Positions 1-20,354 of a stretch of DNA of 32,000 bases are shown one piece after another (the first letter of the stretch is position 1; each line of letters opens with the position of its first letter). Source of the stretch: Candidatus Saccharimonadota bacterium (GTDB taxonomy: Archaea > Nanobdellota > Nanobdellia > Pacearchaeales > GW2011-AR1). The notes under the pieces are model-generated. The model saw nothing but the letters and a program-made list of their open reading frames with translations. It was not told where the DNA came from and searched no databases. The stretch is taken from assembly GCA_041659445.1 (NCBI GenBank), contig JBAZYG010000001.1, forward strand, positions 360,001 through 392,000. Reading direction: 5' to 3'. A program made the translations under genes and the position numbers.

Positions 1-218
1 AAGAAAGATATGATTCTGATAAAGTTGTTTTACCAATTTGTTCTAAGTGCGGTTCTATTGCAATCGACGACAATATTAGAAATAAAAAAATATGCCATCA
101 ATGTGGTTCTGAAGAAGTTGAACCTATTGAAGTATCTTATGCATTCAAACTTTTAGTTGAAGAATTACAAGGATTACATATTAATACTCAATTTAAATTA
201 AAAAACAAATATGAATAA
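1..218 (+). CDS. rpoB: DNA-directed RNA polymerase subunit B, C-terminal end (5' part outside window)
   Basis: Own frame-3 translation gives ...ERYDSDKVVLPICSKCGSIAIDDNIRNKKICHQCGSEEVEPIEVSYAFKLLVEELQGLHINTQFKLKNKYE*, with stop TAA at 216-218. A CxxC...CxxC zinc ribbon followed by SYAFKLL.EEL is typical of the C-terminus of the archaeal/eukaryotic second-largest RNAP subunit. The position upstream of rpoA fits. It is missing from the ORF track because it has no start codon in the window. Confidence 0.85.
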   Translation, partial: ERYDSDKVVLPICSKCGSIAIDDNIRNKKICHQCGSEEVEPIEVSYAFKLLVEELQGLHINTQFKLKNKYE

Positions 219-501
219 AATGAATACAGAACAAGAAACAAAATTAATAGATATGTCTAAAAAGAAATTAGAAGGTATTTTATTAAAGGATTTTATTAAA
301 ATCAGAAATTCACTAGAAGATTTAGATCTTAATTATGGAAACCCTATATTAAATAAAAATCAATTAATAAGAAGCAATCAAAGATATAATAAAAATATAC
401 TTAATTTCAGAGAAGAATATGGTTTAACCTTTACAGAAATACAAGAAAAATATGAAAAATTATTACCAAAAATAAATGAATACCTAGGAGAACAAAACTA
501 A
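211..501 (+). CDS. hypothetical small protein (96 aa; 93 aa if started at ATG 220)
   Basis: ORF track. ATG 220 forms a TAA-A-ATG junction with the rpoB stop (216-218), and ATG 211 overlaps rpoB. There is no recognisable motif. Coding is supported only by the tight coupling on both sides. Confidence 0.5.
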   Translation: MNKMNTEQETKLIDMSKKKLEGILLKDFIKIRNSLEDLDLNYGNPILNKNQLIRSNQRYNKNILNFREEYGLTFTEIQEKYEKLLPKINEYLGEQN

Positions 502-502
502 A

Positions 503-757
503 ATGGTATACAAAGAATTAATAAAATTTGATAATAAAAAAGATTATGAAAAAGCTAGAGAATATTTAAGAGCTTTAATTAAAAATACTGAAGGGTCATG
601 CGTTTTTGATGATGAAAGAGATCATTACGAAAGTGTTAATAAAGAAATGAAAATAAATTTAGACAACAAAAAATTTGCAATTTCTGCAGAATGCAAATAT
701 TTAGATGATCAAAGTTTTTTAGAAAAAAAATTAAATGAATTCAAAAAAACAAAATGA
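503..757 (+). CDS. hypothetical small protein (84 aa)
   Basis: ORF track. The start lies 1 nt after the upstream TAA (499-501), and the stop TGA overlaps the next ATG (ATGA at 754-757). No recognisable domain. Confidence 0.5.
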   Translation: MVYKELIKFDNKKDYEKAREYLRALIKNTEGSCVFDDERDHYESVNKEMKINLDNKKFAISAECKYLDDQSFLEKKLNEFKKTK

Positions 758-996
758 CAAATCAAAGTTATCAAACAATAGAAGCAAATGAAAAAGGTTA
801 TGATGAAATGACTTCTTTTTTAGGGCAAAGCGGGTTTAACTTAGATAGAACTTCTAAAAATAAAAATTATTGGAGAAAGGGTGATTATGTTGTTAAACTT
901 ATATCCTCTAAAAATAAAATTGAACTGATTAATGTTGATGATTTCACAAGAAAAAGTTTAGAATATATAGCACAACAGGAGAAAATAAGAAACTAA
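754..996 (+). CDS. hypothetical small protein (80 aa)
   Basis: ORF track. It has an ATGA overlap upstream and a TAA-A-ATG junction with rpoA downstream (994-1000). No recognisable domain. Confidence 0.5.
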   Translation: MTNQSYQTIEANEKGYDEMTSFLGQSGFNLDRTSKNKNYWRKGDYVVKLISSKNKIELINVDDFTRKSLEYIAQQEKIRN

Positions 997-997
997 A

Positions 998-3900
998 ATG
1001 ACAGAAAAACCAATAAGAAAAAAAATAGGAGTAATAAGATTTTCACTCTTGAGTCCAGAAGATATCAAAAATATTTCTGTTGCAAAAGTTGTTACACCTG
1101 AACTTTATGATATTGATGGTTATCCTGTCGACGGTGGATTAATGGATTTGAGATTAGGAGCAATTGACCCAGGAGTAAGATGTAGAACTTGTGGTGGAAG
1201 AATCAAAGAATGTTTAGGACATCCAGGAAGTATTGATTTAGCTAAACCAGTTATTCATTTAAATTATGTTCCTTTAATTGAAATGTGTTTAAGATCTTTT
1301 TGTAAAGACTGTGGAAAATTAATGATTAATGAAAAAGATTTATCAAAATATTCTCCAAGTATGAGAGTAAAGAAAGCAAAAGATGCTAAAAAATGTCCTT
1401 ATTGTCAAGCTGCACAAGAAAAATTCAGATTAGATAAACCAACTAATTTTTACAAAGGAAAATCAAGAATTTTTCCAACAGAAATAAGAGAAATTTTGGT
1501 TAAAATTCCCGACGAGGAATTGAAAAAAGCAGGAGTTAATGCAAGAACATGTCGACCTGAATGGGCAATTTTAACTTCATTATTAGTTCCGCCTGTTACT
1601 GTAAGACCTTCAATTATTTTAGAAACAGGTGAAAGAAGTGAAGATGATTTAACACACAAACTTTCAGATATTATTCGAGCAAATCAAAGACTTTGGGAAA
1701 ATTTGAATGCAGGTGCACCTGAAGTTATTATCGAGGATTTATGGGATTTATTACAATATCATATTACAACTTTTTTTGATAACACAATTACAAGAGTTCC
1801 TCCAGCAAGACATCGTTCTGGACAACCATTAAAAACAATTACAGAAAGAATCAAGGGTAAAGAAGGAAGAATTAGAAAAAATATTGCAGGTAAAAGAGTA
1901 AATTATTCTGGTAGAACAGTTATTAGTCCAGATCCAAATTTAAAAATAAACGAAGTGGGAATTCCTTATGAAATCGCAAGAATTGTAACTGTTTTAGAAA
2001 ATGTGAATGATTTGAATATTAAAAAATTAAAAGACCTTATTAAAAAAGGAAGCGAATATCCTGGGGCAAATTATGTTATAAGACCTGATGGAAAAAAGAA
2101 AAAAATTACAGATGAATTAAAAGATGAAATAATAAATGAAATTGAACCAGGTTATAAAGTAGAAAGACATTTACAAGACGGGGATGTGGTTTTGTTTAAC
2201 AGACACCCTAGCCTTCACAGAGGAAGCTTAATGGCACACTTTGTAAGAGTATTGCCTGGAAGAACATTCAGAATGCATCCTGCTTCATGTACACCCTACA
2301 ACGCAGATTTTGATGGTGATGAGATGAATATTCACTCTCCACAAAATGAAGAAGCACGAGCAGAAGCAAAAATACTTTTAGATGTTAAAAACAATTTAAT
2401 TTCTCCTAAAAATAATACAAACTTGGTTGGTTGTATTGTTGATTCTATTACTGGAAATTATTTAATTGGATTAAAAGAATTTTCAAGAGAAGAAGCAAAT
2501 CAATTACTTTATAATTCTGGAATAGATAGTCCAATTACGAAAAAAAGCATTTCTGGATTAGAATTATTTTCAAAAATCTTACCAAAAGTTAATTTCTCTA
2601 ATGATTCTATTAAAATTAAAGACGGTGAAATAAAAGAAGGAGTTATTGATAAAACTACTTTTGGAGATGAAGACGGAGAATTGATAAAAGTTTTAGACAG
2701 AGAAGTTGGAAGAGATGAAACTTTTGAAACAATTAGAAAAGCATTTAATTTAGGTAAAAATTATTTATCTGGAAGAGGAATTACTGCTTCTGTCGAGGAT
2801 TTTGATTTAGATGAAGAATTAATTAAAGCGGGTGAAAAAATAATTAAAGAAGCTGAAGAAAAAGTTGAAGAAATTATTAAATCATATGAAGATGAAACAT
2901 TAGAATTAATTCCTGGAAAATCAAGAGAAGAATCTCGGGAAATTGCAATTTTAAGAGTATTGAACGAGGTTAGAACAAAAATCGGTCCAATGGTTAAAAA
3001 AGAATTCCCAAGTGAAAATCCAATAAGTTATATGATGAAATCTGGTGGTGGTGGAAATGTTTTGAATATTACTCAGATGGCTTCTTGCGTCGGTCAACAG
3101 GCAATGGGAAATAAAAGAATTGATTTTGGATATACTGGAAGAACACTTCCTTTTTTCAAGAAAGGAGATTTGTCCCCAAGAGCAAGAGGATTTATTAGAA
3201 GTCCATTTATTAAAGGATTAAGACCAGATGAATTTTTCTTTCAGGCAATAACAGGAAGAGATTCACTTATGGATACTGCATTAAGAACTCCTAAATCAGG
3301 TTATTTATATAGAAGATTGGCAAGTGCATTACAAGATATTAGAGTTGAATACGACGAGACAGTAAGAGATTCTGGAAATAATATAATTCAATTTAAATAT
3401 GGTGACGACGGAATTGATGTTTCAAAATTACACAAAAATGAAAAAGTTTGTCCTGGAGAAGCAATTGGATTAATTGCTGCACAAAGTTTCGGTGAAGCTT
3501 CAACACAGATGGTTTTAAGAACATTCCATATGGCAGGTGTTGCTGAAATGCAGGTAACAACAGGTTTACCGAGATTAATTGAAATTTTTGATGCTCGAAA
3601 AAAACCTTCATCACCAAAAATGGAAATTTATCTTAAAAAAGAATACAATAATGAAAAAGATGCTAAAACTTTTGCAGAAAAAATAAAAGAAGTAACATTA
3701 AAAGAAATTTCTTCTGAAATAAATTTAGATTTCTCAAATAAAAAAATTAAAATTTCAGTTGACAAAGAAGCATTAAGAAAAACTCACATGACAATAACTA
3801 AAGTTGTTGAAAAGTTAAATGAATCTGGATTTAAGGTTAAAGAAAGTGCAGATTCTATTTTAATAAATGCATCTGAAATTGGATTTAAAGAAATTTATCA

Positions 3901-4483
3901 ATTAAAAGAAAAACTTAAGAGAACAATTATTTCTGGAATTAAAGATGTTCAACAAATTTTAATTTCAAAGAAAGGAAACGATTTTTTAATAATCACATTA
4001 GGAACAAACTTAAAAGATGTTACAAAATTAAAAGAAGTAAATGCAGAAAAAACAATTTCAAATGATTTGCATGAAGTTGCTGGAATTTTTGGAGTTGAAG
4101 TTGCAAGACAATTAATTATCAACGAAATAAAAGAAGTTATTGATAATCAAGGTTTAGATATTAATGAAAGACACTTAAAACTCGTCGCTGATTCAATGAC
4201 AAATGTTGGAGAAGTTAAAGGGGTTACAAGAATGGGAATTATTGCACAAAAATCTTCTATTTTAGCGAGGGCAACTTTTGAAACACCAATAAAACAATTT
4301 GTAAATGCTATTGTTAAAGGAAGCGAGGACAAATTATCAAGTGTTATTGAAAATATAATCTTGAATCAACCAGTCCCTGTAGGAACAGGTTTGCCTGGAC
4401 TTTTAGTGAATGTGATTGGTCCTTTAAGTAAAAAAGAAAGTGAAAAAAAAGGAGTAAAATTAGATTCTGCAAATAAGTCATAA
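998..4483 (+). CDS. rpoA: DNA-directed RNA polymerase largest subunit, A' and A'' portions fused in one 1161-aa ORF
   Basis: Contains the zinc motif CRTCGGRIKECLGHPG, the catalytic YNADFDGDEMNIH, and the bridge-helix region FFFQAITGRDSLMDTALRTPKSGYLYRRL. The trigger loop GEASTQMVLRTFHMAGV and an A''-type C-terminus (...NQPVPVGTGLPGL) follow in the same frame with no stop. Confidence 0.95.
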   Translation: MTEKPIRKKIGVIRFSLLSPEDIKNISVAKVVTPELYDIDGYPVDGGLMDLRLGAIDPGVRCRTCGGRIKECLGHPGSIDLAKPVIHLNYVPLIEMCLRSFCKDCGKLMINEKDLSKYSPSMRVKKAKDAKKCPYCQAAQEKFRLDKPTNFYKGKSRIFPTEIREILVKIPDEELKKAGVNARTCRPEWAILTSLLVPPVTVRPSIILETGERSEDDLTHKLSDIIRANQRLWENLNAGAPEVIIEDLWDLLQYHITTFFDNTITRVPPARHRSGQPLKTITERIKGKEGRIRKNIAGKRVNYSGRTVISPDPNLKINEVGIPYEIARIVTVLENVNDLNIKKLKDLIKKGSEYPGANYVIRPDGKKKKITDELKDEIINEIEPGYKVERHLQDGDVVLFNRHPSLHRGSLMAHFVRVLPGRTFRMHPASCTPYNADFDGDEMNIHSPQNEEARAEAKILLDVKNNLISPKNNTNLVGCIVDSITGNYLIGLKEFSREEANQLLYNSGIDSPITKKSISGLELFSKILPKVNFSNDSIKIKDGEIKEGVIDKTTFGDEDGELIKVLDREVGRDETFETIRKAFNLGKNYLSGRGITASVEDFDLDEELIKAGEKIIKEAEEKVEEIIKSYEDETLELIPGKSREESREIAILRVLNEVRTKIGPMVKKEFPSENPISYMMKSGGGGNVLNITQMASCVGQQAMGNKRIDFGYTGRTLPFFKKGDLSPRARGFIRSPFIKGLRPDEFFFQAITGRDSLMDTALRTPKSGYLYRRLASALQDIRVEYDETVRDSGNNIIQFKYGDDGIDVSKLHKNEKVCPGEAIGLIAAQSFGEASTQMVLRTFHMAGVAEMQVTTGLPRLIEIFDARKKPSSPKMEIYLKKEYNNEKDAKTFAEKIKEVTLKEISSEINLDFSNKKIKISVDKEALRKTHMTITKVVEKLNESGFKVKESADSILINASEIGFKEIYQLKEKLKRTIISGIKDVQQILISKKGNDFLIITLGTNLKDVTKLKEVNAEKTISNDLHEVAGIFGVEVARQLIINEIKEVIDNQGLDINERHLKLVADSMTNVGEVKGVTRMGIIAQKSSILARATFETPIKQFVNAIVKGSEDKLSSVIENIILNQPVPVGTGLPGLLVNVIGPLSKKESEKKGVKLDSANKS

Positions 4484-5449: not shown

Positions 5450-5689
5450 ATGGCATTAAAAACTTTAAAAGTTGAATTAGAAGATTACACTGAAAAAATT
5501 GCACCTTATTTATTAAAAATAAAAATTAAAGAACCAGAAATAAGTAATAACTCTATTTGCCATTATACTAAATATGGGGCTATATTAACAGAGCCAAACC
5601 ATGAAGAATTATTCATTCAAATTGTTCTTGATGACAAAAGTCCTGCATTGGGAGAATTAGAAAAATTAATAAAAGGAGAGGAAAATTAA
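5450..5689 (+). CDS. hypothetical small protein (79 aa), paralogue of 5691..5966
   Basis: TAA-A-ATG junction with the rps12 stop (5446-5452). It shares an N-terminal pattern (..K.L....E.Y.EKI.PY) and an identical C-terminus ELEKLIKGEEN with the next ORF. Confidence 0.6.
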   Translation: MALKTLKVELEDYTEKIAPYLLKIKIKEPEISNNSICHYTKYGAILTEPNHEELFIQIVLDDKSPALGELEKLIKGEEN

Positions 5690-5696
5690 AATGACA
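5653..5696 (+). repeat. 44-bp exact direct repeat, copy 1 (agaattagaaaaattaataaaaggagaggaaaattaaaatgaca)
   Basis: Character-by-character identity with 5930-5973. It spans the last 11 codons, the stop, 1 nt, and ATGACA of the next gene. Confidence 0.95.
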
Positions 5697-5966
5697 TTTA
5701 AAGTTTTAGAAATAGCCTATGAAAAATATGTTGAGAAAATTCTTCCTTATATAACAGAAAATTATAATAGAGTTAATAATAAACCTGTAAGAGCATATCT
5801 CCCAGGTGCAACAATGCATAGTCTTAAAAAAGGCGTTATTCAAACAAATTTAGATCTTGAAGATATGAAATCTCCTAAAATGAAAATATATATCAACCCT
5901 TTAATAAGAGATAACAAAAAAATAATTGAAGAATTAGAAAAATTAATAAAAGGAGAGGAAAATTAA
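5691..5966 (+). CDS. hypothetical small protein (91 aa), paralogue of 5450..5689
   Basis: TAA-A-ATG junctions on both sides and a shared C-terminal ELEKLIKGEEN. Confidence 0.6.
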   Translation: MTFKVLEIAYEKYVEKILPYITENYNRVNNKPVRAYLPGATMHSLKKGVIQTNLDLEDMKSPKMKIYINPLIRDNKKIIEELEKLIKGEEN

Positions 5967-5973
5967 AATGACA
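5930..5973 (+). repeat. 44-bp exact direct repeat, copy 2
   Basis: Identical to 5653-5696, at an offset of 277 bp. Confidence 0.95.
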
Positions 5974-6309
5974 AAACAAGATTTCGGAAAAGAACGTACA
6001 ATGTCAGCACAGGATCTTAAAAAAAAGATTAAGGAGTTGGAAGAATTTGTTGAAGTAAATGCTCCTCTTTTTGAATTTAGAGTAAACTCTTTTCAAATTA
6101 AAGATGCAAAAGATTATATGACTAATAATTTCGGAAATTTATATGACCTAGCTCAATTATGTTGGTCCTATGATACAGGGTCTAGAATAATTCTTAAAGA
6201 CAATGGAGAAGAGAGAGGATATTTGGGTTATAAATTAAGCATTCATACACAAGGAGAAGTTAATCACACCATTATAGATGGATTAGTGAGAATCTTAACA
6301 AAAAATTAA
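5968..6309 (+). CDS. hypothetical small protein (113 aa)
   Basis: ORF track. TAA-A-ATG junctions with the upstream ORF and with rps7 (6307-6313). No recognisable domain. Confidence 0.55.
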   Translation: MTKQDFGKERTMSAQDLKKKIKELEEFVEVNAPLFEFRVNSFQIKDAKDYMTNNFGNLYDLAQLCWSYDTGSRIILKDNGEERGYLGYKLSIHTQGEVNHTIIDGLVRILTKN

Positions 6310-6310
6310 A

Positions 6311-6913
6311 ATGACGAACTTAAATTTTAAAATATTTGACATGTGGGATATTTCTGAAATTGTTGTTGAAGATTTAGGATTGAAAAATGTAATAAATTTA
6401 CAACCAAAATTAATCTTGAAAAATCAAGGAACAAATGTTGTAAAATTCGGGCAAGCAAAAATTAATGTTGTTGAGAGATTAATAAACAAAATATCCACTG
6501 GCGGACACCGAGGTAAAAAACATAAAATTGAAATTGGACATGCTACTGGAAAATATTCAAAAAATGCAAAAATTGTTATTGAAACTTTAAAAATTATTGA
6601 AAATAGAACTAAAAAAAATCCAGTTCAAGTTTTAGTTAAGGCTATTGAAAATGCTGCGCCAAGAGATGAAGTTACTGTAATTGAGTATGGTGGTGCAAGA
6701 TATCCTCAAGCAGTTGATGTTTCACCATTAAGAAGAATAAATCTTGCATTGAAACATATTGTGCATGGTTCTTCTGATAAGGCATTTGGAAAAAAGAAAA
6801 AACTTTCACAAACTCTTGCTGAAGAAATAATCTTAGCCTCTGAAAATAACGGTGAAAGTTTTTCTGTAAAAAAGAAAAACGAATCTGAAAAACAAGCTGA
6901 CAGTGCACGATAA
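6311..6913 (+). CDS. rps7: 30S ribosomal protein S7 (uS7)
   Basis: ...LVKAIENAAPRDEVTVIEYGGARYPQAVDVSPLRRINLALKHIVHGS... is a typical archaeal uS7 core. The order after rps12 fits. Confidence 0.95.
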   Translation: MTNLNFKIFDMWDISEIVVEDLGLKNVINLQPKLILKNQGTNVVKFGQAKINVVERLINKISTGGHRGKKHKIEIGHATGKYSKNAKIVIETLKIIENRTKKNPVQVLVKAIENAAPRDEVTVIEYGGARYPQAVDVSPLRRINLALKHIVHGSSDKAFGKKKKLSQTLAEEIILASENNGESFSVKKKNESEKQADSAR

Positions 6914-6962
6914 ATATATTCTCTAGAATAGATTTCTTTTTAAACTAAAATTTAATCTTAAA
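6904..6962 (+). repeat. 59-bp perfect direct repeat, copy 1 (last 7 coding nt of rps7 + TAA + whole downstream spacer)
   Basis: tgcacgataaatatattctctagaatagatttctttttaaactaaaatttaatcttaaa is identical to 7774-7832. It contains TTTTTAAA (6937-6944) 29 nt upstream of ATG 6966. Confidence 0.95.
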
Positions 6963-6965
6963 CTT

Positions 6966-7475
6966 ATGGAAATTAGAGAGAATCCAGAATACCTTAAATT
7001 ACAAGAAGAATTTTTTAGAGCAAAAAAAGAATTTAGAAATAGTGAAGCATTTAAAAAATTGGAAATTTCTTATTTTGGGCAACTTAATTCTCAAATTAAA
7101 AAAATTGAAGAAGAAACAAAAAAGAGATTTTTAAATATTCCAGAAATAGGAAACGAAATAACACAAAGCTTAGAAAAATTCAAATTTTTTTATGACCCTT
7201 GTAATATGAGATTTATTGTAAAAGTTAAAGAAATGAAAATTTTGGGAAAGAATTATAATTTAGAATTAATTGCATCAAAATTTCCTATTGAAGAGCAAGA
7301 TTATGATTCTTTAAAAAATGATAAACAATATGCACATGATGTTAAAATGATGGAAAACTATTTATTTGAATTAGAATTGCATCCTTCATCACGTCATTGG
7401 AAGAATGAAAAAATTGAAATGTTTTTGAAAGAAAATCATATTTTTGGTTTTATAGCAGGATATTATAAAGATTAA
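6966..7475 (+). CDS. hypothetical protein (169 aa), inside the repeat-bracketed insert
   Basis: ORF track. The ATG lies 29 nt downstream of a TATA-like TTTTTAAA carried by the repeat. No recognisable domain. Confidence 0.5.
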   Translation: MEIRENPEYLKLQEEFFRAKKEFRNSEAFKKLEISYFGQLNSQIKKIEEETKKRFLNIPEIGNEITQSLEKFKFFYDPCNMRFIVKVKEMKILGKNYNLELIASKFPIEEQDYDSLKNDKQYAHDVKMMENYLFELELHPSSRHWKNEKIEMFLKENHIFGFIAGYYKD

Positions 7476-7783
7476 ATAATAATCAAACTGAACATTATTT
7501 TGCAGAAGAAGCAATATATCTTGGAAGATCAGGTGAAAATCAAACACATAAACTATTTTTTAGAAACCCAATTTTTAAAAAAGATATAAATGGCAATTAT
7601 TGTATTTTAAAAAATGAAAATACGCTTTCAACAATAGTTGAATTTGAGAAATACAATCTTGATAATAGAAATTTTTTAATTTTGAATAACCCAAATGTTT
7701 TAGGATTATCTAACTTAGAAAAAGAACATTTGTTTAAAAAATATCCTGAAAAAGTTGAAGTTCAAACCAATCCTGCACGATAA
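7469..7783 (+). pseudogene. ATG-less 104-codon open frame; possible 3' half of a frameshifted gene continuing 6966..7475
   Basis: Own translation: RLNNNQTEHYFAEEAIYLGRSGENQTHKLFFRNPIFKKDINGNYCILKNENTLSTIVEFEKYNLDNRNFLILNNPNVLGLSNLEKEHLFKKYPEKVEVQTNPAR*. There is no ATG/GTG, and the only TTG is at 7682. The frame opens 7 nt before the stop of 6966..7475, and its last codons and stop lie inside repeat copy 2. Confidence 0.35.
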
Positions 7784-7832
7784 ATATATTCTCTAGAATA
7801 GATTTCTTTTTAAACTAAAATTTAATCTTAAA
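7774..7832 (+). repeat. 59-bp perfect direct repeat, copy 2
   Basis: Identical to 6904-6962, at an offset of 870 bp. TTTTTAAA lies 30 nt upstream of ATG 7837. Confidence 0.95.
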
Positions 7833-7836
7833 TCCA

Positions 7837-8625
7837 ATGGGAAATAATTTTTTTGAATCAAATGAATTAAGAATTTTTTCAAATGCTCGTAAAACTGAAG
7901 GTTTAAAAGACTTGCTCTTTTCTGGAAGAGAATTAATTAGTCCAAGGCAATTAATTTCTATTCAATTAAATTTTAAAAATGAAAATGATTTGATAAAATT
8001 AAGAGAAGAGCAATACGAAACAAAAACAATTAGTTTAAACAAAAGCTGGATAGATTATAAAAGAAACCCGACACATTACTCTTTTGATAAAAAACCAGAA
8101 ATAATTATAATATCCTCCAACCAGATTAAAACTTTGGAAATGTTATGTAACTTCTTTAAGAGTTCTCTATCACAAGATTTTTTAGAAAGATATAATTTAT
8201 TTGAAAAAGAAGCTCTTAAAATTCCAGAAGAAGTTATAAACGAATCTTTAGAAGAATTGGAATATAAGTTAGATAAAAGAATAATTATAAAAAATAAAAT
8301 TTGGAAACAAAAATTCATTGAGTTTATATTAGAGGGAGATTCAAAATTGATTCAAGATTACATAAAATACACAGAAGATATAACTAAAAAGCCATTTTAT
8401 GACAGCCTAAAAATAGAATTCCAAGACAATGCTTTTGAAGCACACCTTTTGAGAATCAATTCTGCATACATTAGCAGATACTGCTTTGATATAAATAAAA
8501 AAAATGCAATAGTTGATCCGTGTTTTGAGTTTGATGATACGAGTAATGGAATTAATTATTTTGGAACAAGATTTATTGGAGTTAGTCAAGAATTCTCTAA
8601 AGAACAAGCTAAAATTTTCGAATGA
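7837..8625 (+). CDS. hypothetical protein (262 aa)
   Basis: ORF track. Long ORF with a leaderless-type promoter geometry supplied by repeat copy 2. No recognisable domain. Confidence 0.55.
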   Translation: MGNNFFESNELRIFSNARKTEGLKDLLFSGRELISPRQLISIQLNFKNENDLIKLREEQYETKTISLNKSWIDYKRNPTHYSFDKKPEIIIISSNQIKTLEMLCNFFKSSLSQDFLERYNLFEKEALKIPEEVINESLEELEYKLDKRIIIKNKIWKQKFIEFILEGDSKLIQDYIKYTEDITKKPFYDSLKIEFQDNAFEAHLLRINSAYISRYCFDINKKNAIVDPCFEFDDTSNGINYFGTRFIGVSQEFSKEQAKIFE

Positions 8626-8671
8626 TTTTCACCACAATAATCCTTATAAATATCTTTAATGATTATTTTTC

Positions 8672-9046
8672 ATGAAAAAAATAGAAATAGAATATGATGA
8701 ATTGTTTAAATTAAAAGAAATTACTGAAGAAGCTAAAAGAGAAATTGAAATTCCTTACCAAGAAAAAAAAGAAGGATTAATAAAAAAAATTTCAAATGAT
8801 TTTGAAAAAAACTTGAAAGAAATAGATATGAACGGTTTTTCAATAAAAGATTATGATGTTTTGATTGATGAATTAAACAAAAACGCACAAGTAATAATTA
8901 AATCAATGAAAAATTCAAAAGGAAAATTAATATTTGACAATGAAATATTAAGAGATATTGGAATTATTTGGTCTCCATTAAAAGAATATTCCGGACATAT
9001 TAGGGAATTTTACGAAAAATATAATATTACATATATCGGATTTTAA
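8672..9046 (+). CDS. hypothetical protein (124 aa)
   Basis: ORF track. TTATAAAT (8644-8651) lies 28 nt upstream of the ATG. Confidence 0.5.
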   Translation: MKKIEIEYDELFKLKEITEEAKREIEIPYQEKKEGLIKKISNDFEKNLKEIDMNGFSIKDYDVLIDELNKNAQVIIKSMKNSKGKLIFDNEILRDIGIIWSPLKEYSGHIREFYEKYNITYIGF

Positions 9047-9111
9047 ATTAATTCTAAAGATTTATAAATAAAATATCTTATGTAATATGCTATAAAATAA
9101 AAGAGGTAAAA

Positions 9112-9897
9112 ATGAACAAACAAAGAAATTATTTAAATGAAGGTGCAGAAGAATTTATAGATTCTTTAAAACCAGGAACAACTCCAAGATTTGAAGATGA
9201 AGAGGAATTTTTTGATATTCTTAAAAAAGATTCTGCAGATTACTTAGATGGAAAAATTAACAGGTTGGAAGATCCAGAATACAAAGAAAAAGATCCTTCT
9301 GAAGAATTTTTATATAATTATTACAAAACAACTAAGAAAAAAGTAATTGAAGTTGCTATCCTTTCTATAGATGTTGTAGATTCAACAAAACTCAGTCATG
9401 TTTTAACTCAAGAAAATTATGCTAAAGTGATTTCAGTAATTTTAAGAGAAATATCTCATATTATTTATAATTATAATGGATATGCTTTAAAATATGTTGG
9501 AGATGAGATTATGGCTTATTTTCCAGGTCCAGATATTAATGGAATGCATGATAATGCACTTTTTTGTGCATATGGAATAAAAAAATACATCTTAAAAATT
9601 TTAAACCCATTATTAAATGAAAGAAGTTTTCCAGAAATAAAATTTAGAATTAGTTTGAATTCTGGAAAAGCAATATTAACTGTCGTCGGACATCCAAATT
9701 CTATGCAACATTTTGATTTAATTGGAGAACCTATAAATACTACAAAAAAAATTCAATTAAAATCAGAAATTAATGCAATTCTTCTTGGAGAATCAACAAA
9801 ATCTTTTACTCATCAATTTTGGAATAGCAAAATAGACCCTATTCTTGTTGAAAATGAAAATAACATTAAAGTTTATAGATTAAATATTTTGGTTTGA
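9112..9897 (+). CDS. class III nucleotidyl (adenylate/guanylate-type) cyclase domain protein
   Basis: The C-terminal ~175 aa carry the class III motif order. These are VAILSIDVVDSTKL (first metal Asp), LKYVGDEIMAYF (Lys + second metal Asp), FRISLNSGKAILTVVG, and FDLIGEPINTTKKIQ (GDxxN-like with Asn). The ~85-aa N-terminal extension is acidic. An SD-like AGAGGT lies 5 nt upstream of the ATG. Confidence 0.7.
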   Translation: MNKQRNYLNEGAEEFIDSLKPGTTPRFEDEEEFFDILKKDSADYLDGKINRLEDPEYKEKDPSEEFLYNYYKTTKKKVIEVAILSIDVVDSTKLSHVLTQENYAKVISVILREISHIIYNYNGYALKYVGDEIMAYFPGPDINGMHDNALFCAYGIKKYILKILNPLLNERSFPEIKFRISLNSGKAILTVVGHPNSMQHFDLIGEPINTTKKIQLKSEINAILLGESTKSFTHQFWNSKIDPILVENENNIKVYRLNILV

Positions 9898-9957
9898 AAC
9901 TAAAAATATATACTTAAGTATAGATTTATTTTTAAATATCTTTTATTAAATTAATTA

Positions 9958-10293
9958 ATGGATGTTAAGAAATTAAAGCAAAAAACAATTTTAGTTCAGT
10001 ATATTAATATAAATGAAGTTCCAGAAAACGGTTTAAAAAGAATGACTTATTTTACGAGCTTGAAAGAAGAACCAGATATTTTTTATTTTGGATTATCTAT
10101 TAGAAAGGGCTCAGAATACTCCAAGGATAATCTAGAGCGTTGGACAAAAGAAGGTAAACTTATTAAATTGACAGAACCGGCAATACTTTCTTTTGAAAAT
10201 GATATTTGGTTAAACCCAAAAGGAAAAATACTTATTTCAAATAGTTATGCTCCTTGGGAAGGAAGTAAAAAAATAATTGGCTCAATTAAATGA
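9958..10293 (+). CDS. hypothetical protein (111 aa)
   Basis: ORF track. TTTTAAAT lies about 29 nt upstream of the ATG. No recognisable domain. Confidence 0.45.
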   Translation: MDVKKLKQKTILVQYININEVPENGLKRMTYFTSLKEEPDIFYFGLSIRKGSEYSKDNLERWTKEGKLIKLTEPAILSFENDIWLNPKGKILISNSYAPWEGSKKIIGSIK

Positions 10294-10321
10294 ATTGTCT
10301 TTCAAGAATTTTTAGTATATA

Positions 10322-10359
10322 CCAAAACTTTATAAATCAATTTTCTTAACAATAATTAT
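10322..10359 (+). promoter_or_regulatory. EF-2 promoter module, paralogous to the rps12 promoter
   Basis: ccaaaactttataaatcaattttcttaacaataattat is 33/38 identical to 4985-5022, with the TATA TTTATAAA at 10329-10336. It implies a leader of about 100 nt for EF-2. Confidence 0.55.
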
Positions 10360-10399
10360 TCTAAATTCATTTTAGATATAAAAACAAACAAAATAAAAA

Positions 10400-10483
10400 A
10401 TGGCAGAAAAAGAACGAATAAATTCATTCAAGGTTCTTCCATTAAATACAAAAATACAATGGCAGAAAAAGAATCAAGCTTAG
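10400..10483 (+). promoter_or_regulatory. upstream ORF (27 codons, MAEKERINSFKVLPLNTKIQWQKKNQA*) overlapping the EF-2 start out of frame
   Basis: Its first 15 nt, ATGGCAGAAAAAGAA, are identical to the EF-2 start. The 16-nt exact repeat is 10399-10414 = 10458-10473. The stop TAG at 10481-10483 lies 25 nt inside EF-2. Confidence 0.5.
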
Positions 10484-12657: not shown

Positions 12658-12808
12658 AAAGATAAACCTCGAAAAATTTTAAGAAATTTTTCTATCCAAA
12701 TCCACACAGTGATTTGAATGAAGCTTTATCTGAAAATCAATAAATGTATTAATTCTTAAGAAGTTACAAAACAGAAAGATATTTAAAGGTTATAACTAAA
12801 ATAAAATC

Positions 12809-13147
12809 ATGGAAGAAATATCATTAAAATCATTCAGAGAACTTTATGAAAAATTCAAAAATAAAGAAATGTCTGAAGGAGAATTTTTAGCAAGATACGA
12901 AAAAACTCTTGAAGTGAAAGAACAAGATGCTGAAAGAATAAACAAAAAATTAAGAGAATATAAAAATCAAATAATTTATTTTAAAGATAACACTTCTCGT
13001 TTAAGAAGGATGTTGGAAACAATAGAAAATAATTTTTTAAGTGTTTTTGAAGAACAAAGAACTTTTCAAATGCCTGTACCTAAAACAGATTTTGAACAAC
13101 AAGTTGAAGATTATCACCGAGCAAATGAAAAATCAGAGAATAAGTAA
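12809..13147 (+). CDS. hypothetical coiled-coil protein (112 aa)
   Basis: ORF track. ATTTAAAG lies about 27 nt upstream of the ATG. The sequence is charged and helical. Confidence 0.45.
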   Translation: MEEISLKSFRELYEKFKNKEMSEGEFLARYEKTLEVKEQDAERINKKLREYKNQIIYFKDNTSRLRRMLETIENNFLSVFEEQRTFQMPVPKTDFEQQVEDYHRANEKSENK

Positions 13148-13189
13148 TTCTTTACAAATCTTTATAAATTAACAATAGAATAATTTTTT

Positions 13190-13669
13190 ATGCAAACTAC
13201 TATAGAAAACCTTAATAAAAAAGATGTAAATGAATTTTTAAAAATTACAGAGAGATATTTATTAGATTTATCTGAATATTCAAATGAAAATGTTTCTAAC
13301 GAAATTGCTAATTTAGAAAAAAATCTTATTAAATGGAGCAAAATTCAAGACCCCCCAAATTTAGAAAAAAACCTAATTGTAATTAAAAAAAATAAAAAAA
13401 TAAAAGGTTTTTTATTTAGAGAAAGTCCGAGATATGATGTTGATTGGATTACACATTTAGGAGTTTCACAAAAAAGAAAAGGACTTGGTAGTCTATTATT
13501 AGAATATGAAATTTCAAACGCAAAAAAACAAGGATTTAGAAAAATTTGTTTGGGCGTTAATAAAAAAAATGTAAATGCAATAAAATTTTATGAAAAATTT
13601 GGCTTTAAATCAATTGGGAATTATCCAAATGAATGTAAAGATGCTTATGCAATGGAAAAAATACTTTAA
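13190..13669 (+). CDS. GNAT-family N-acetyltransferase
   Basis: GNAT motif A ...HLGVSQKRKGLGSLLLEYEISNAKKQGFRKICLGVNKKNVNAIKFYEKFGFK. TTTATAAA (13161-13168) lies 29 nt upstream of the ATG. Confidence 0.8.
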   Translation: MQTTIENLNKKDVNEFLKITERYLLDLSEYSNENVSNEIANLEKNLIKWSKIQDPPNLEKNLIVIKKNKKIKGFLFRESPRYDVDWITHLGVSQKRKGLGSLLLEYEISNAKKQGFRKICLGVNKKNVNAIKFYEKFGFKSIGNYPNECKDAYAMEKIL

Positions 13670-13729
13670 ATTAAAAAGTATATTCTTTAGTACAGTTATA
13701 TTTTTAAAATACAAATTCAATTAATTAAA

Positions 13730-13948
13730 ATGGTTGAAGTGGAAAAATTAAGTGTTGGAGCTCAAATAAAAATAAAACCTGATTCTTGGGGATATTGCTC
13801 TGAAATTCAAGGTAGCATAAATTACCCTTTAATTCCAAAAGCAAATGTTTTAGAAATTTATATTAAAGATAAAAAAGTTCTTGTTCAAGTAGAGGGACAA
13901 AATGAGAAAGTTAAATATTCTATAGATAATATTCTTGAAATTTGTTAA
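13730..13948 (+). CDS. hypothetical small protein (72 aa)
   Basis: ORF track. A TATA-like TTTAAAAT lies about 27 nt upstream. Confidence 0.4.
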   Translation: MVEVEKLSVGAQIKIKPDSWGYCSEIQGSINYPLIPKANVLEIYIKDKKVLVQVEGQNEKVKYSIDNILEIC

Positions 13949-14004
13949 AAATAATAATTAGTTTTGAACATAAATCTTTAAAAATAATTAATCCATGAAA
14001 AAAT

Positions 14005-14427
14005 ATGGAATTTGAAAAATGGAAACTTGAAATTGCATTTATTCATATTTCTTATTTAATTGAGAACAAAACTCCAATAATAGTTGGAAATTCTAAAGAA
14101 TATCTTAAAACAACAAAAGAATATTTTGAAAGTGCAAATAAAAGTTTAGAATCAATGATAAATTTTGATGAATCAAAAGGATATTTTATAACTCCTTTTT
14201 TAAAAAGTATGGTTATTTCATCCTTAAACAAAAACCCAAATGAATCTTCAAATCAAGAAATTATAAAAGTAAAATCAAAAGTGGAAAAAATTTTACAAAA
14301 TTTAGATAAATTAGAAGATAACCCCTTGGGTTTTTGCAATACAAAAGATTCTAAAAAAATGCTAGAATATTTTAAGAAATTCAATTCATTTTTAACAAAA
14401 CCAATTAAAGTTTCAGAGTATGATTAA
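14005..14427 (+). CDS. hypothetical protein (140 aa)
   Basis: ORF track. TTTAAAAA (13977-13984) lies 28 nt upstream of the ATG. Confidence 0.45.
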   Translation: MEFEKWKLEIAFIHISYLIENKTPIIVGNSKEYLKTTKEYFESANKSLESMINFDESKGYFITPFLKSMVISSLNKNPNESSNQEIIKVKSKVEKILQNLDKLEDNPLGFCNTKDSKKMLEYFKKFNSFLTKPIKVSEYD

Positions 14428-14514
14428 TTTTACAATTTCTTGATTTTTTTAATTCTTTGCCCATAAAAAAACCATAAATAAAATGTTTTTAAAGTTTTAT
14501 CTTCTAAGATTTAA

Positions 14515-15060
14515 ATGTTAAACTTAGATATTTTAATAAATTCAAAAATTCCTGAAATATGGAACCCAAGTTTGAACAAATTTATGCTTTTTATTACACA
14601 CATGGGCGGGGGTTTGTTTATTGTTACTCTTAGTTTTCTCATTATAATTTATTTGTTTTATAAGAAAAAATATTCAAAATTAATTTTATTATTTATTGGT
14701 ATCGCTGGTGGAATAATTTTACGAACCTTAATTAAAATTTCTGTTAAAAGAATAAGACCTGAAAATAGTTTAGTTTCTGAAACAGGATATAGTTTTCCAA
14801 GTGGACATGCACTTTTATCTATAATATTTTTCTTACTATTAATTTATATATTTAAAGACGAAATAAAAATAAAAAGTTTGAAAATAATTTTCATTACAAT
14901 AAATATTATTCTTATTCTATTTGTTAGTTTCAGTAGGATTTATTTGAATGTCCACTGGTTTAGTGATGTTTTTGGAGGAATTTTAATTGGGATTGCTTGG
15001 ACAATAATTTCTATATTAATCACGACTAAATTTATAAATCCAAAAATTCTAAAAACTTGA
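14515..15060 (+). CDS. PAP2-family membrane phosphatase (phosphatidic acid / undecaprenyl-diphosphate phosphatase type)
   Basis: All three PAP2 motifs are present: KRIRPEN (KxxxxxxRP), SFPSGHA (PSGH) and SRIYLNVHWFSDVFGG (SRxxxxxHxxxD). Several hydrophobic helices. Confidence 0.85.
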   Translation: MLNLDILINSKIPEIWNPSLNKFMLFITHMGGGLFIVTLSFLIIIYLFYKKKYSKLILLFIGIAGGIILRTLIKISVKRIRPENSLVSETGYSFPSGHALLSIIFFLLLIYIFKDEIKIKSLKIIFITINIILILFVSFSRIYLNVHWFSDVFGGILIGIAWTIISILITTKFINPKILKT

Positions 15061-15434
15061 TGAGTTGGAAAAAAACTTCAAAATGGATGAGATGGGTAAT
15101 TTATCCTTTACCAGTTATTGGAGGATTATTTGCTATCTATGATTTAACAAAACAATATCATGAATCAAAAGAAGAAAGAAAAAAAGGTTTAATTGCAGCA
15201 GATTTCATATTTACAATACCTTTAATAATTAAAGTTGCAGGAACAACAGCATATTTAATTAATGGTGTAGTAACTCACGTATGGAACCCCGCAGAATACA
15301 ATATTGTTCAAATTGCAAAAGATAAAATAAAAAATATAATTAATACAGAAAACCCAATAGATTCAACTAAAATAAATAAATTAGAAAAAACAATAAATTT
15401 TGAAGATTGCGATTCAACAAATTTAGAAAAATAA
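15060..15434 (+). CDS. hypothetical membrane protein (124 aa from ATG 15060)
   Basis: The ATG overlaps the PAP2 stop (TGATG at 15058-15062). Two hydrophobic segments are present: WVIYPLPVIGGLFAIYDL and FIFTIPLIIKVAGTTAYLINGVV. The track's 15057 start is a TTG one codon upstream. Confidence 0.5.
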   Translation: MSWKKTSKWMRWVIYPLPVIGGLFAIYDLTKQYHESKEERKKGLIAADFIFTIPLIIKVAGTTAYLINGVVTHVWNPAEYNIVQIAKDKIKNIINTENPIDSTKINKLEKTINFEDCDSTNLEK

Positions 15435-15442
15435 ACTAATAT

Positions 15443-15874
15443 TTATTTACAAGATTTTAAAAGATTTGGATTGTTTATTTGTGCATCTGCAAATTCATAA
15501 AAACTATTTTTAAGATTATTTGAAGTATTTTTTAATAGTTGAGCAAAATCTTTTGCAGTATCTTTTGCAATTTGTTTATAATCTGTATTCGCAAATTTTT
15601 CATAATTCATTGCTGCAACACAACCGATTTTTGACCCTGGACCAATAACAGCGTATGCATTCATTTTTGATGCTCCAGAAACACCTAATGCATCAAACAT
15701 TCCATCAATATAACCAAGAGTTTCTAACCCTGCAAATAAAGTAAATCCAACCATTACAGGAACACCATACTCATTTAAATTTTTTCTACTAAAAACTTGA
15801 TTTGAAGTATCAGCAACCCATTTAATTGGTTTTAAACCGCTTACTTTTTTTATTAATTTTGATTCTTTTACCAT
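15443..15874 (-). CDS. hypothetical protein (143 aa)
   Basis: ORF track. The near-palindromic TATA TTTATAAA (15896-15903) lies 29 nt upstream on the minus strand. No recognisable domain. Confidence 0.5.
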   Translation of the reverse strand: MVKESKLIKKVSGLKPIKWVADTSNQVFSRKNLNEYGVPVMVGFTLFAGLETLGYIDGMFDALGVSGASKMNAYAVIGPGSKIGCVAAMNYEKFANTDYKQIAKDTAKDFAQLLKNTSNNLKNSFYEFADAQINNPNLLKSCK

Positions 15875-15977
15875 AAAAAAATAATAAATTTAATCTTTAT
15901 AAATCTTTTGATTTTGTAGTTTCTTATAAGTAGTTACAAATGGAAAAGTTTATATAGTTTAATAAACAACAAATATT

Positions 15978-16379
15978 ATGAAAAAAATACTATATGTAGA
16001 AGACATGAAGCAATGTTATGAAAATACTAGCAAAGCTCTTGGTAATGATTTTGAAATTGATTGGAAAACAAATTATTCTGAAGCACTTAAAGCTATAAAT
16101 GGAAATCTTGAACAATATTCTGTAGGGATTTTTGATGTCAATCTTGATTATAATCCTAGATTACCTTTAAATCAACAAACAACAGAAGGCTTAGACTTAA
16201 TTAAATTAGCAAAAGAAAAAAGCAAAGAAAAAGGAATGGATTTTCCAATTATCTGTGCAAGTAGCAACAATAGTTATAGAAAATCAGCTATGCAAAATGG
16301 TGCAGATTTATTTTTATTAAAAAAAGAATTTTGGAATAAAGGAAAATCAAAATTAGAAAATATAATTAAAAAGATTTAA
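15978..16379 (+). CDS. stand-alone receiver (REC/CheY-like) domain protein
   Basis: The REC pattern is present: KILYVEDM (acidic pocket), GIFDVNLD (candidate phospho-Asp), PIICASSN (Ser/Thr position) and DLFLLKK (conserved Lys). No output domain. Confidence 0.6.
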   Translation: MKKILYVEDMKQCYENTSKALGNDFEIDWKTNYSEALKAINGNLEQYSVGIFDVNLDYNPRLPLNQQTTEGLDLIKLAKEKSKEKGMDFPIICASSNNSYRKSAMQNGADLFLLKKEFWNKGKSKLENIIKKI

Positions 16380-16403
16380 ATTAATCAAATTCTTTAGATA
16401 AAA

Positions 16404-16874
16404 ATGATTCAATTAATGAAATATACTTATATGATGGACCCTGAAAAAATTAAAAAAGAATTAGATAAACTTTGGAATAAATATCAAGAAATTATTGAGG
16501 ATAAAAATTCAAATTGGGAAGAATTAAATGAAGCAAGAGCAATCCTCTTTTTAACTGGAGATACTTATTGTGAAGAAATTGCAGTTGAGGCAATAGAAAG
16601 ACGATTACATTTGTTAAGTGAAAAAATAACTTTACTTGAATTTTTTGATTTAATAGACAAAGAATCAAAAAAACTTAATGAATTAAGAAAAGATAAAATT
16701 TTTTCAAACCTTGAAAAATTCTACAGAATAATAAAAGAATTTAAGAACAGATATAAAGAAGGAAAATTTTATCTTGACGAAGAAAAATTCATAAAAAAAT
16801 ATAATTCAACTAATCCAGATAAAGAACTTCAGATAGGTTATAGAGGAAAATTTGGAGAGAAAAAATCATTATAG
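16404..16874 (+). CDS. hypothetical protein (156 aa)
   Basis: ORF track. ATTTAAAT lies about 30 nt upstream of the ATG. Confidence 0.45.
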   Translation: MIQLMKYTYMMDPEKIKKELDKLWNKYQEIIEDKNSNWEELNEARAILFLTGDTYCEEIAVEAIERRLHLLSEKITLLEFFDLIDKESKKLNELRKDKIFSNLEKFYRIIKEFKNRYKEGKFYLDEEKFIKKYNSTNPDKELQIGYRGKFGEKKSL

Positions 16875-16987
16875 ATATTTTCTTTTTATTTACAATTTTA
16901 TATATCAACTACCAAATTTTAAAATCCGACGATAAAATTTGAAGCAAATAAATATAACTAAAAAATAAAAAGCAATTAAACGAAATA

Positions 16988-16995
16988 TTTATAAA
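16988..16995 (+). promoter_or_regulatory. TATA box TTTATAAA of the EF-1alpha transcription unit
   Basis: It lies 30 nt upstream of ATG 17018 (the mini-ORF), not of the EF-1alpha ATG 17073. This is the same spacing seen at more than 12 other first genes in this window. Confidence 0.6.
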
Positions 16996-17017
16996 CCTTA
17001 TTTTTTATTAACTAACT

Positions 17018-17056
17018 ATGGCTAAGCTCAACAAAGGTTGGCTAGAACCCATTTAA
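17018..17056 (+). promoter_or_regulatory. upstream mini-ORF (12 codons, MAKLNKGWLEPI*) ahead of EF-1alpha
   Basis: ATGGCTAAG... repeats the EF-1alpha start ATGGCTAAA (MAK). Its stop lies 16 nt before ATG 17073. Confidence 0.5.
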
Positions 17057-17072
17057 AAAACAAAAAATCAAA

Positions 17073-18438: not shown

Positions 18439-18657
18439 ATGGTTGAATATGAATTAATCGCTTTAGGGGGAATTGCATTAGTGGGATTTGGAACAAAGGC
18501 TTATTTAGATATAAAAGAAAAAAAAAGAATAAATAGATTTAATAATTGGGTTAATAATTATTTCATTCCAGAAACAAATAAAATTCGAGAATTAATTAAT
18601 GAATTTAGCGTAGTTTCAAAAGATTTAACAAATAAACTAAAGGATAACAAAATTTAA
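18439..18657 (+). CDS. hypothetical small membrane protein (72 aa)
   Basis: ORF track. N-terminal hydrophobic helix LIALGGIALVGFG. Bracketed by a direct repeat of about 26 nt. Confidence 0.5.
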   Translation: MVEYELIALGGIALVGFGTKAYLDIKEKKRINRFNNWVNNYFIPETNKIRELINEFSVVSKDLTNKLKDNKI

Positions 18658-18658
18658 A

Positions 18659-18880: not shown

Positions 18881-18894
18881 AATACAAATTTAAA

Positions 18895-19119: not shown

Positions 19120-19120
19120 A

Positions 19121-19465: not shown

Positions 19466-19529
19466 TTACCACAAGATTTATATATTAACTTTTTTTGATA
19501 ATAACTCGAACAAAAATTATAAAATTAAA

Positions 19530-20338: not shown

Positions 20339-20354
20339 ATATTGTTAAAAGTTG

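Follow-up and report, generated by a model that had tools for sequence, protein, structure and literature searches.

Three coupled small genes between rpoB and rpoA in a Pacearchaeales genome, probably accessory genes of a permissive operon junction

The stretch of DNA analysed here (the window) comprises 32,000 nucleotides of contig JBAZYG010000001.1 (assembly GCA_041659445.1, positions 360,001 to 392,000), which GTDB places in the Pacearchaeales, and it opens inside an RNA polymerase operon in which three small open reading frames (ORF1, ORF2 and ORF3) separate rpoB from rpoA. The ORFs run in the same direction as the polymerase genes and exactly occupy the 779 bp between the rpoB stop and the rpoA start (Table 1), and the sequence and its ORF listing confirm the three reading frames, and the lengths, that an earlier note on this DNA had reported. 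The upstream flank is identified through L001, an identical metagenome contig, on which the full rpoB encodes 1082 amino acids (aa); throughout, L numbers denote loci and contigs and P numbers denote proteins. The DNA of the window is also found identically in two further public assemblies, and the ORF2 product carries the NCBI name hypothetical protein WC812_02510, Candidatus Pacearchaeota archaeon. A scan of the whole window against Rfam gave no family matches.

Table 1. Genes and stop-start motifs at the rpoB-rpoA junction (position 1 is the first letter of the window)
Feature	Position	Strand	Basis
rpoB 3' end	1..218	+	Last 72 codons, TAA stop at 216-218; window 3-215 is 100% identical by tblastn to the RpoB C-terminus of L001, where Pfam finds RNA_pol_Rpb2_1 to _7
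TAAAATG stop-start, rpoB/ORF1	216..222	+	Read from sequence
ORF1, 93 aa	220..501	+	ORF listing; 10 homologue clusters; alternative ATG at 211 gives 96 aa with an 8-nt rpoB overlap
TAAAATG stop-start, ORF1/ORF2	499..505	+	Read from sequence; inside the 11-nt AAACTAAAATG (495-505)
ORF2, 84 aa	503..757	+	ORF listing; homologue family; predicted beta-alpha-beta4-alpha fold (AlphaFold2)
ATGA start/stop overlap, ORF2/ORF3	754..757	+	Read from sequence
ORF3, 80 aa	754..996	+	ORF listing; homologue family; predicted beta-alpha-beta4-alpha fold (AlphaFold2)
TAAAATG stop-start, ORF3/rpoA	994..1000	+	Read from sequence
rpoA, one 1161-aa ORF (A' and A'' fused)	998..4483	+	Pfam RNA_pol_Rpb1_1 to _5 on the identical L001 gene

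ORF1, ORF2 and ORF3 are genuine genes. The region in which they lie is poor in G+C (21-27%, with 49% A) and has a stop probability of 0.108 per codon, at which an open frame would arise by chance with a probability of about 1e-4 over 80 codons and about 2.5e-5 over 93 codons. The five other frames of the region are interrupted by 15 to 35 stops each, and no ORF of at least 40 aa is present on the minus strand beneath positions 211-996. All three ORFs show the codon periodicity GC1>GC2>GC3, and their G+C content at third codon positions (GC3, 0.12-0.18) equals that of rpoA and of the genes for S12, S7 and elongation factor 2 (EF2), with an overall G+C content of 0.21-0.27 vs 0.30 in rpoA. Each ORF also has a family of homologues in which lengths and termini have been kept, from which it is concluded that the three are real genes under selection. 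For ORF1, the true start is probably the ATG at 220 rather than that at 211, because the N-termini of its homologues (MNEEQKQKL and MDEAQTQKL) align in register with MNTEQETKL of ORF1 and because the 93-aa form already exists as a called protein (P0001).

The stop-start motifs that join the three ORFs to each other and to the polymerase genes are exactly those first described for this locus, three copies of TAAAATG and one ATGA overlap. TAAAATG, in which one nucleotide separates stop and start, is a general coupling idiom of both the genome and the lineage, and no special mark of these inserts. All nine one-nucleotide junctions in the window have this sequence, including those of unrelated genes distant from the rpo cluster. 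In the relatives (L003-L082), the commonest tight spacing is one nucleotide, with 101 cases, of which 70 are TAAAATG and 18 are TAAGATG, the next most frequent form. The earlier note had seen the same architecture, with the same junction, in a triplet of small ORFs between rps12 and rps7. Because TAAAATG is lineage-wide, this resemblance is not evidence of a shared special architecture, and the two triplets show no sequence similarity to each other.

The 11-nt AAACTAAAATG at the ORF1/ORF2 junction recurs at 990-1000 and so brackets ORF2 and ORF3. Given the TAAAATG idiom, such a repeat has a probability of about 4% by chance, and it is at most a weak echo of an insertion footprint of the kind suggested by a 59-nt repeat elsewhere in the window, described below. 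C-terminal asparagine was considered as a boundary motif of the inserts and rejected, since it is enriched (19% of small ORFs before TAAAATG end in Asn, vs 6% of ORFs generally) but does not define them. No transcription signal was detected inside the insert, in agreement with the original description. Promoters of sigma-70 type are in no excess (8 seen vs 7.6 expected) in a bacterial-type scan that does not cover archaeal promoters, and a hairpin scan of the ORF region detected no terminator. Runs of at least five T, at 3.8 per kb vs 2.6-2.7 per kb in rpoA and EF2, were judged no denser.

The three ORFs had been called orphans, a description that does not hold. An exhaustive HMMER scan of the concatenated ORF1-3 proteins against 1.84 billion representative proteins (E<=1e-3) returned 23 matches, which fall into three non-overlapping groups, one for each ORF, with conserved lengths and termini. 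The homologues come only from metagenomes and from metagenome-assembled genomes (MAGs) of Pacearchaeota type. The ORF1 family has ten other clusters (P0006, P0009, P0013-P0016 and P0020-P0023) at 30-49% identity and E values from 7e-14 to 3e-4. The ORF3 family has seven (P0007, P0008, P0010, P0011, P0012, P0017 and P0018) at 39-53% identity, with a best E of 3e-13. The ORF2 family, at first four clusters and later seven (P0003, P0004, P0005, P0019, P0025, P0026 and P0027), also includes an ORF at L021:5729-5980, with 27-59% identity and a best E of 2e-23. A further scan of metagenome contigs with the ORF2-family alignment recovered only the already known L089 contig. None of the three proteins has a match in Pfam, NCBIfam, PHROGs, PADLOC or PDB sequences, and no relatives of them were found among IMG/VR contigs, phage records or plasmid records that would point to a viral or mobile origin. 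The first statement about these ORFs, that no domain is recognisable, thus stands for domains defined by sequence; it does not stand for ORF2 and ORF3, in which a fold can be recognised by structure prediction.

ORF1 is apparently a small all-helical protein, judging by eye and from near-hits of coiled-coil type in the PDB, and its family shares the C-terminal motif F(K/R)ExYGxEFxxxQxxYxxLLPxINxYL. One member of the family, the 183-aa metagenome protein P0014, is a tandem duplication in which the motif YGVEFxELQKQYExxxPEIN occurs twice. ORF2 and ORF3 do not match each other by BLASTP; hhalign aligns them at E 0.061 in the same structural register, and they may be distant paralogues. A weak match of the ORF2 profile to RpoA (around residues 870-950 in L075, L049 and L036, E 0.001-0.1) was rejected as a relationship: the alignment is out of register with the structural elements, the RpoA of the window itself is unmatched, and profile-profile comparison with 47 RpoA jaw segments gives probabilities of 2.6% for ORF2 and 0.6% for ORF3.

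The families differ in the genomic places that they occupy. Members of the ORF2 family lie directly downstream of rpoB in all six readable contexts (the window, L021, L085, L089, which equals L095, L091 and L096). The order is rpoB-ORF2 homologue-rpoA in L089/L095, L096 and L021, rpoB-71 aa-ORF2 homologue-63 aa-rpoA in L091, and rpoB-ORF2 homologue-61 aa-54 aa-99+ aa in L085, and the ORFs that stand beside the ORF2 homologues in the latter two arrays are unrelated to ORF1 and ORF3. The geometry of P0025, available at the protein level only, is compatible with the same site, and the L090 contig is too short to judge. The RpoB and RpoA proteins that flank the ORF2 homologues are 77-85% identical, while the ORF2 proteins themselves are 27-59% identical. 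Relatives of ORF1 and ORF3 occur elsewhere. One relative of ORF1 is flanked by SBDS and Rrp4, with one-nucleotide spacers, in an exosome operon of the order psmA-SBDS-Rrp4-Rrp41 (L088), and another lies among unknown genes (L083). Relatives of ORF3 lie between rps12 and rps7 (L092-L094) and just upstream of secE (L087). From these differing contexts it follows that three independent genes have come together in the window as a triplet specific to its lineage. A rough neighbour-joining tree of RpoB and RpoA fragments scatters the carriers of ORF2 inside one sub-clade, among genomes with contiguous junctions, as would be expected either if the gene was inserted long ago and lost many times or if it was gained repeatedly at one site. 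Two of the neighbours of ORF2 homologues (L085 568-753 and L091 1274-1465) are Cys-rich mini-proteins of 61-63 aa with the pattern CxxxxC...CxxxxxC.

The rpoB-rpoA junction itself was surveyed in one genome per GTDB species, scanned with the RpoA N-terminus, which yielded 80 loci with 68-86% RpoA identity from MAGs labelled Pacearchaeota, Woesearchaeota or Nanoarchaeota. Both the rpoB stop and the rpoA start could be read in 78 of them, giving 79 junctions with the window. The two genes are normally contiguous, as had been assumed, with at most 40 bp between them in 45 of the 79 junctions. Five junctions have gaps of 40-150 bp, and the remaining 29 (28 relatives and the window) have gaps of 171-1262 bp that are nearly exactly filled by one to four ORFs on the same strand, 40-140 aa long. 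Inserts of different relatives are mostly unrelated to one another. The largest gap (1262 bp, L014 2756-3983) holds four ORFs, including a toxin-antitoxin pair of an NTP_transf_2 (MNT) protein and HepT (HEPN RNase). An MNT-like nucleotidyltransferase (NTP_transf_2) is found in the gaps of L017 and L027, a protein with a tRNA-binding domain (tRNA_bind) in that of L033, and other inserts encode membrane or Cys-rich mini-proteins, the latter in L043, L056, L062, L075 and L078, with some interrelated at E<1e-3. Gaps above 150 bp are also frequent at S12-S7 (18/50), nusA-S12 (22/56) and S7-EF2 (21/29), with just 3/71 at rpoH-rpoB, and some insert families occupy differing junctions between genomes, or within one genome (L023). 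The complete triplet of ORF1-3 is present in none of the 80 related loci, and the only relative of any of the three is the ORF2 homologue of L021 (27% identity). The idea of a conserved module at this junction thus fails; taken gene by gene, ORF2 survives the comparison and ORF1 and ORF3, whose relatives sit in other operons, do not.

Structure prediction gives confident AlphaFold2 models for ORF3 (predicted local distance difference test score, pLDDT, 86.9; predicted template-modelling score, pTM, 0.75; alignment of 8 sequences) and for ORF2 (pLDDT 79.6, pTM 0.64). The models have an identical order of elements, a strand, a helix, four strands and a helix (beta-alpha-beta4-alpha), which DSSP assigns in ORF3 as E7-10 H13-25 (E28-29) E39-42 E45-50 E55-60 H63-79 and in ORF2 as E3-8 H12-27 E31-35 E39-44 E49-54 E59-64 H67-82. 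The lobe of the TBP has been described by the element scheme S1-H1-S2-S3-S4-S5-H2 (PMC7221094), and both models, at about 80 residues, follow this scheme, in terms of element order and not of the order of strands in the sheet. The best Foldseek match of ORF3 in the PDB is the RNase HIII of Aquifex (3vn5, probability 0.99, query template-modelling score TMq 0.65, E 0.11, 72 columns), followed by further RNase HIII structures (4py5, 2d0a and 3asm) and then by secretin N-domains. Because RNase HII is absent from this Foldseek list, the matched part of RNase HIII is probably its TBP-like N-domain. For ORF2 the best E value belongs to RepDE (TMq 0.57, E 0.036), and the matches also include six RnlA chains (6y2p, 4i8o, 6y2r and 6y2s among them; TMq 0.41-0.44, E 0.08-0.2), the C-terminal domain of a phosphomutase (TMq 0.63), Pcc1 and KA1 domains. 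Fold comparison with BFVD gave uninformative matches. The nearest structures include the domains with which RNase HIII and RnlA bind their substrates. On this ground ORF2 and ORF3, possibly in dimeric form, would most likely bind either a protein partner or double-stranded nucleic acid.

Taken together, these observations argue, with a probability of about 0.62, that ORF1, ORF2 and ORF3 are three genuine small proteins from three unrelated, fast-evolving families confined to archaea of Pacearchaeota type, lodged as accessory genes in an operon junction that is permissive to them, and that the junctions between conserved information-processing genes in this clade repeatedly acquire such genes. 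The ORFs would most likely be transcribed with the rpoH-rpoB-rpoA operon by read-through, which is proposed from the lack of any detectable promoter or terminator of their own, and be translated by termination-reinitiation at the TAAAATG and ATGA motifs, the normal coupling idiom of the lineage. An insert that keeps the stop-start coupling would leave the downstream essential gene undisturbed and at the same time gain strong constitutive expression. ORF1 and ORF3, whose relatives ride other housekeeping operons, would be opportunistic passengers. ORF2 is the sole plausible candidate among the three for a polymerase-linked factor, a tentative assignment made because its position after rpoB is kept in every readable context despite the low identity of its members. 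It is unlikely that homodimers of ORF2 or ORF3 or a translationally coupled heterodimer would rebuild a TBP-like saddle on duplex nucleic acid, with the ORF2 family, fixed between rpoB and rpoA across Pacearchaeota, as a new lineage-specific transcription factor or polymerase accessory protein and as a living 'monopartite TBP domain' stage in the origin of TBP.

Several points weigh against this interpretation. Co-transcription and coupling are deduced from gene geometry, and archaeal promoters lie beyond the reach of the scan used. The site fidelity of ORF2 could reflect vertical inheritance of a neutral insert in one sub-clade; L089 and L096 are close relatives, which leaves about five independent ORF2 contexts, and the context contigs are mostly short (0.5-3.8 kb). 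Of the six contexts in which relatives of ORF1 and ORF3 are found, five are information-processing operons, which could mean a shared role with RNA or protein machines instead of passive hitchhiking. As to the folds, the ORF2 model is built on five sequences, no Foldseek match of either protein reaches E<=1e-3, and the beta-alpha-beta4-alpha order is widespread, with the secretin, Pcc1 and KA1 domains also among the matches. TBP itself is absent from the top Foldseek matches, which are mixed with unrelated folds that share the topology, and the ORF2 and ORF3 profiles have no match at E<=10 to the Pfam TBP family (PF00352 and its clan) or to PDB sequences of TBP, RNase HIII and RnlA. A conserved protruding aromatic residue at position 1 of loop L5 marks proteins with the TBP lobe (PMC7221094). 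In ORF3 and ORF2 the residue after S4 is Ser51 and Asn55, respectively, according to alignments set against DSSP, with the register taken from the predicted models, and the conserved aromatic of the two families sits in S3 (Tyr39 in ORF3, Tyr/His42 in ORF2). ORF2 and ORF3 therefore look, as predicted models, like single TBP lobes; membership in the TBP superfamily, for which the case is weak, is withheld because of the Foldseek E values, the lack of profile similarity and the missing L5 aromatic.

A different explanation, implied by the earlier note, would give all three ORFs a dedicated role in RNA polymerase, as accessory subunits or regulators specific to the lineage and produced in step with RpoB and RpoA. 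Their position between the two largest subunit genes, the tight coupling without detected internal signals and the constant location of the ORF2 family at the rpoB-rpoA junction would all suit such a role. However, the triplet is missing from all 80 related loci, ORF1 and ORF3 have relatives in exosome, S12-S7 and secE contexts, and the same junction in relatives also holds toxin-antitoxin and other unrelated genes. Similarity to polymerase subunits was not found by Pfam (no RNA_pol family at E<=1 to 10), by PDB sequence profiles (none at E<=10) or by Foldseek, where the only polymerase folds among the top 50 matches of ORF3 are vaccinia 6rfl_K and 8rqk_K (TMq 0.27-0.28) and ORF2 has none; the RpoA jaw region is likewise dissimilar (hhalign probability below 3%). 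This makes a dedicated polymerase role for the whole triplet quite improbable.

The ORFs could instead be mobile cassettes bounded by TAAAATG that move between stop-start junctions by microhomology recombination. Members of one family do stand at different junctions, nearly always with exact one-nucleotide TAAAATG boundaries (paralogues at rpoB-rpoA and rpoA-nusA in L023, the related inserts of L014 and L046, and the S12-S7 insert of L012 related to window 18439), the 11-nt AAACTAAAATG repeat brackets ORF2 and ORF3, and the perfect 59-nt repeat flanks an apparently recent insert after rps7. However, TAAAATG also joins conserved core genes, so that selection for compact coupling is enough to account for it and mobility is not needed, and the 11-nt match is of the kind that the idiom produces by chance in about 4% of cases. 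No recombinase is associated with the ORFs, their GC3 is fully host-like, and protein identities of 40-50% are too low for the DNA boundaries of a transfer still to be traced; movement as bounded cassettes is thus very unlikely.

A selfish or addictive module of toxin-antitoxin type, lodged in an essential operon where its deletion would be costly, has in its favour the bona fide MNT and HepT pair at the rpoB-rpoA junction of L014, the MNT-like genes of L017 and L027, the TBP-like domains of the RnlA toxin in the fold list of ORF2 and the rapid turnover of inserts between close relatives. The three families nonetheless match no toxin, antitoxin or defence profile (PADLOC, Pfam and NCBIfam), occur singly and not as fixed pairs, and contain no nuclease or HEPN domain, and no relatives of theirs were found among viral contigs or in phage and plasmid records, which leaves this explanation only a slight chance. 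That the ORFs are non-functional (open by chance, left over from decayed spacer, or derived from pieces of rpoB or rpoA), as their low G+C content and the absence of matches to curated families might suggest, is effectively refuted by the improbability of each open frame (about 1e-4), by length-conserved homologues with E values down to 1e-23, by the confident AlphaFold2 models and by their dissimilarity to RpoA and RpoB.

The remainder of the window contains further features of the same operon and its surroundings. The RpoA of the window is fused in one ORF, and 50 ORFs longer than 1100 aa that contain NADFDGDEMN occur across the set of loci, the one in the window included. A split A'/A'' pair is usual in Archaea. 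No rpl30e gene was found between rpoA and the nusA-like gene in the window. The classical order of the str cluster is preserved but heavily interrupted. In the rps12-rps7 insertion, the ORFs at 5450-5689 and 5691-5966 are paralogous (BLASTP E 2.5e-6) and have a common C-terminus, ELEKLIKGEEN, and the third ORF (5968-6309) is unrelated to them. The interval between S7 and EF2 (6914-10458, 3.5 kb) holds five ORFs, including one for an adenylate/guanylate cyclase-domain protein (9112-9897), and that between EF2 and EF1alpha (12658-17072, 4.4 kb) holds GNAT, PAP2 and receiver-domain genes. After EF-1alpha, seven unannotated small ORFs (72-156 aa, window 18439-20660) have no Pfam match, and several of them are coupled by TAAAATG; the ORF at 18439-18657 has a homologue in the S12-S7 gap of L012. 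A GmrSD_N and HNH endonuclease gene, resembling type IV restriction defence, lies at 23005-24201.

A perfect 59-nt direct repeat (window 6904-6962 and 7774-7832) brackets an 811-bp gene-bearing segment after rps7. The first copy comprises the last 10 nt of rps7 and the spacer before the ORF at 6966, and the second comprises the last 10 nt of an ATG-less frame (7478-7783, ending ...NPAR*) and the same spacer before the ORF at 7837. Within the segment, the ORF at 6966-7475 and its out-of-frame continuation are probably parts of a single gene, about 270 aa long, that is broken by a frameshift. The repeat looks like the footprint of a recent insertion or duplication, and on that account the same operon would have taken up DNA recently.

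The adjacency of rpoB and rpoA (rpoBC in bacteria) is among the most conserved of prokaryotic gene pairs, and about a third of the species in this DPANN clade carry something between the two genes. The inserts vary by species yet keep the exact stop-start coupling, which suggests that symbionts with reduced genomes are still able to take up small genes and to express them with no addition of regulatory DNA. It was already known that accessory genes can lodge in conserved gene orders, and the proteins themselves had been deposited as 'hypothetical'. What is new is the frequency and diversity of rpoB-rpoA insertions within one archaeal clade and the site-locked ORF2 family, together with the predicted occurrence of a single-lobe TBP-like fold in two adjacent, translationally coupled genes; a limited search of the searchable literature brought up no paper describing ORFs at the rpoB-rpoA junction in DPANN archaea. 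The predicted fold bears on the debate over whether a monomeric domain gave rise to TBP. Should ORF2 prove to bind promoter DNA or the polymerase, archaeal transcription would gain a new component; otherwise the locus would stand as a clean natural example of operon hitchhiking.

Among known systems, a precedent for a small, lineage-restricted polymerase protein is Rpo13. This subunit is specific to the Sulfolobales and has a helix-turn-helix fold, and its gene does not lie between rpoB and rpoA; ORF1-3 had no match in PDB profile searches that covered archaeal polymerase. The closest structural counterpart of ORF3 is the N-domain of bacterial RNase HIII, which has the same single-lobe beta-alpha-beta4-alpha order over about 80 residues and which binds RNA/DNA duplexes (PMC4132731, PMC7221094). 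This N-domain and the TBP1 and TBP2 domains of RnlA have been described as single-lobe TBP modules for the binding of duplexes or substrates (PMC3597702, PMC7221094, PMC8266594). However, the RNase HIII family is bacterial, with a catalytic domain joined to the N-domain. ORF3 is archaeal and free-standing, with 10% identity to the N-domain, no profile similarity to it and the Foldseek E value given above. TBP1 and TBP2 of the toxin RnlA (RNase LS), single TBP-like lobes for substrate binding (PMC8266594), rank high in the structural matches of ORF2, but RnlA has a HEPN nuclease domain and a partner antitoxin, of which ORF2 has neither, and the template-modelling scores are modest, with no sequence similarity. 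A further parallel is offered by the one-domain TBP proteins of Archaea, namely the monopartite TBP-domain proteins of Thermococcales (82-97 aa) and the halobacterial TbpA, which are free-standing, of about the length of ORF2 and ORF3 and of unknown function (Brindefalk et al. 2013, PMC3597702). These are detectable by Pfam TBP profiles, whereas ORF2 and ORF3 are not at E<=10; they come from different taxa, and no link to a polymerase operon has been reported for them. As regards the inserts as a class, phage morons and operon-lodged toxin-antitoxin pairs resemble those at rpoB-rpoA in their variable presence at a fixed site and in their heterogeneous content. Classical morons carry their own promoter and terminator and often have a deviant composition. 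Unlike them, ORF1-3 have no detectable signals of their own in the bacterial-type scan, and they combine exact stop-start coupling with host-like GC3.

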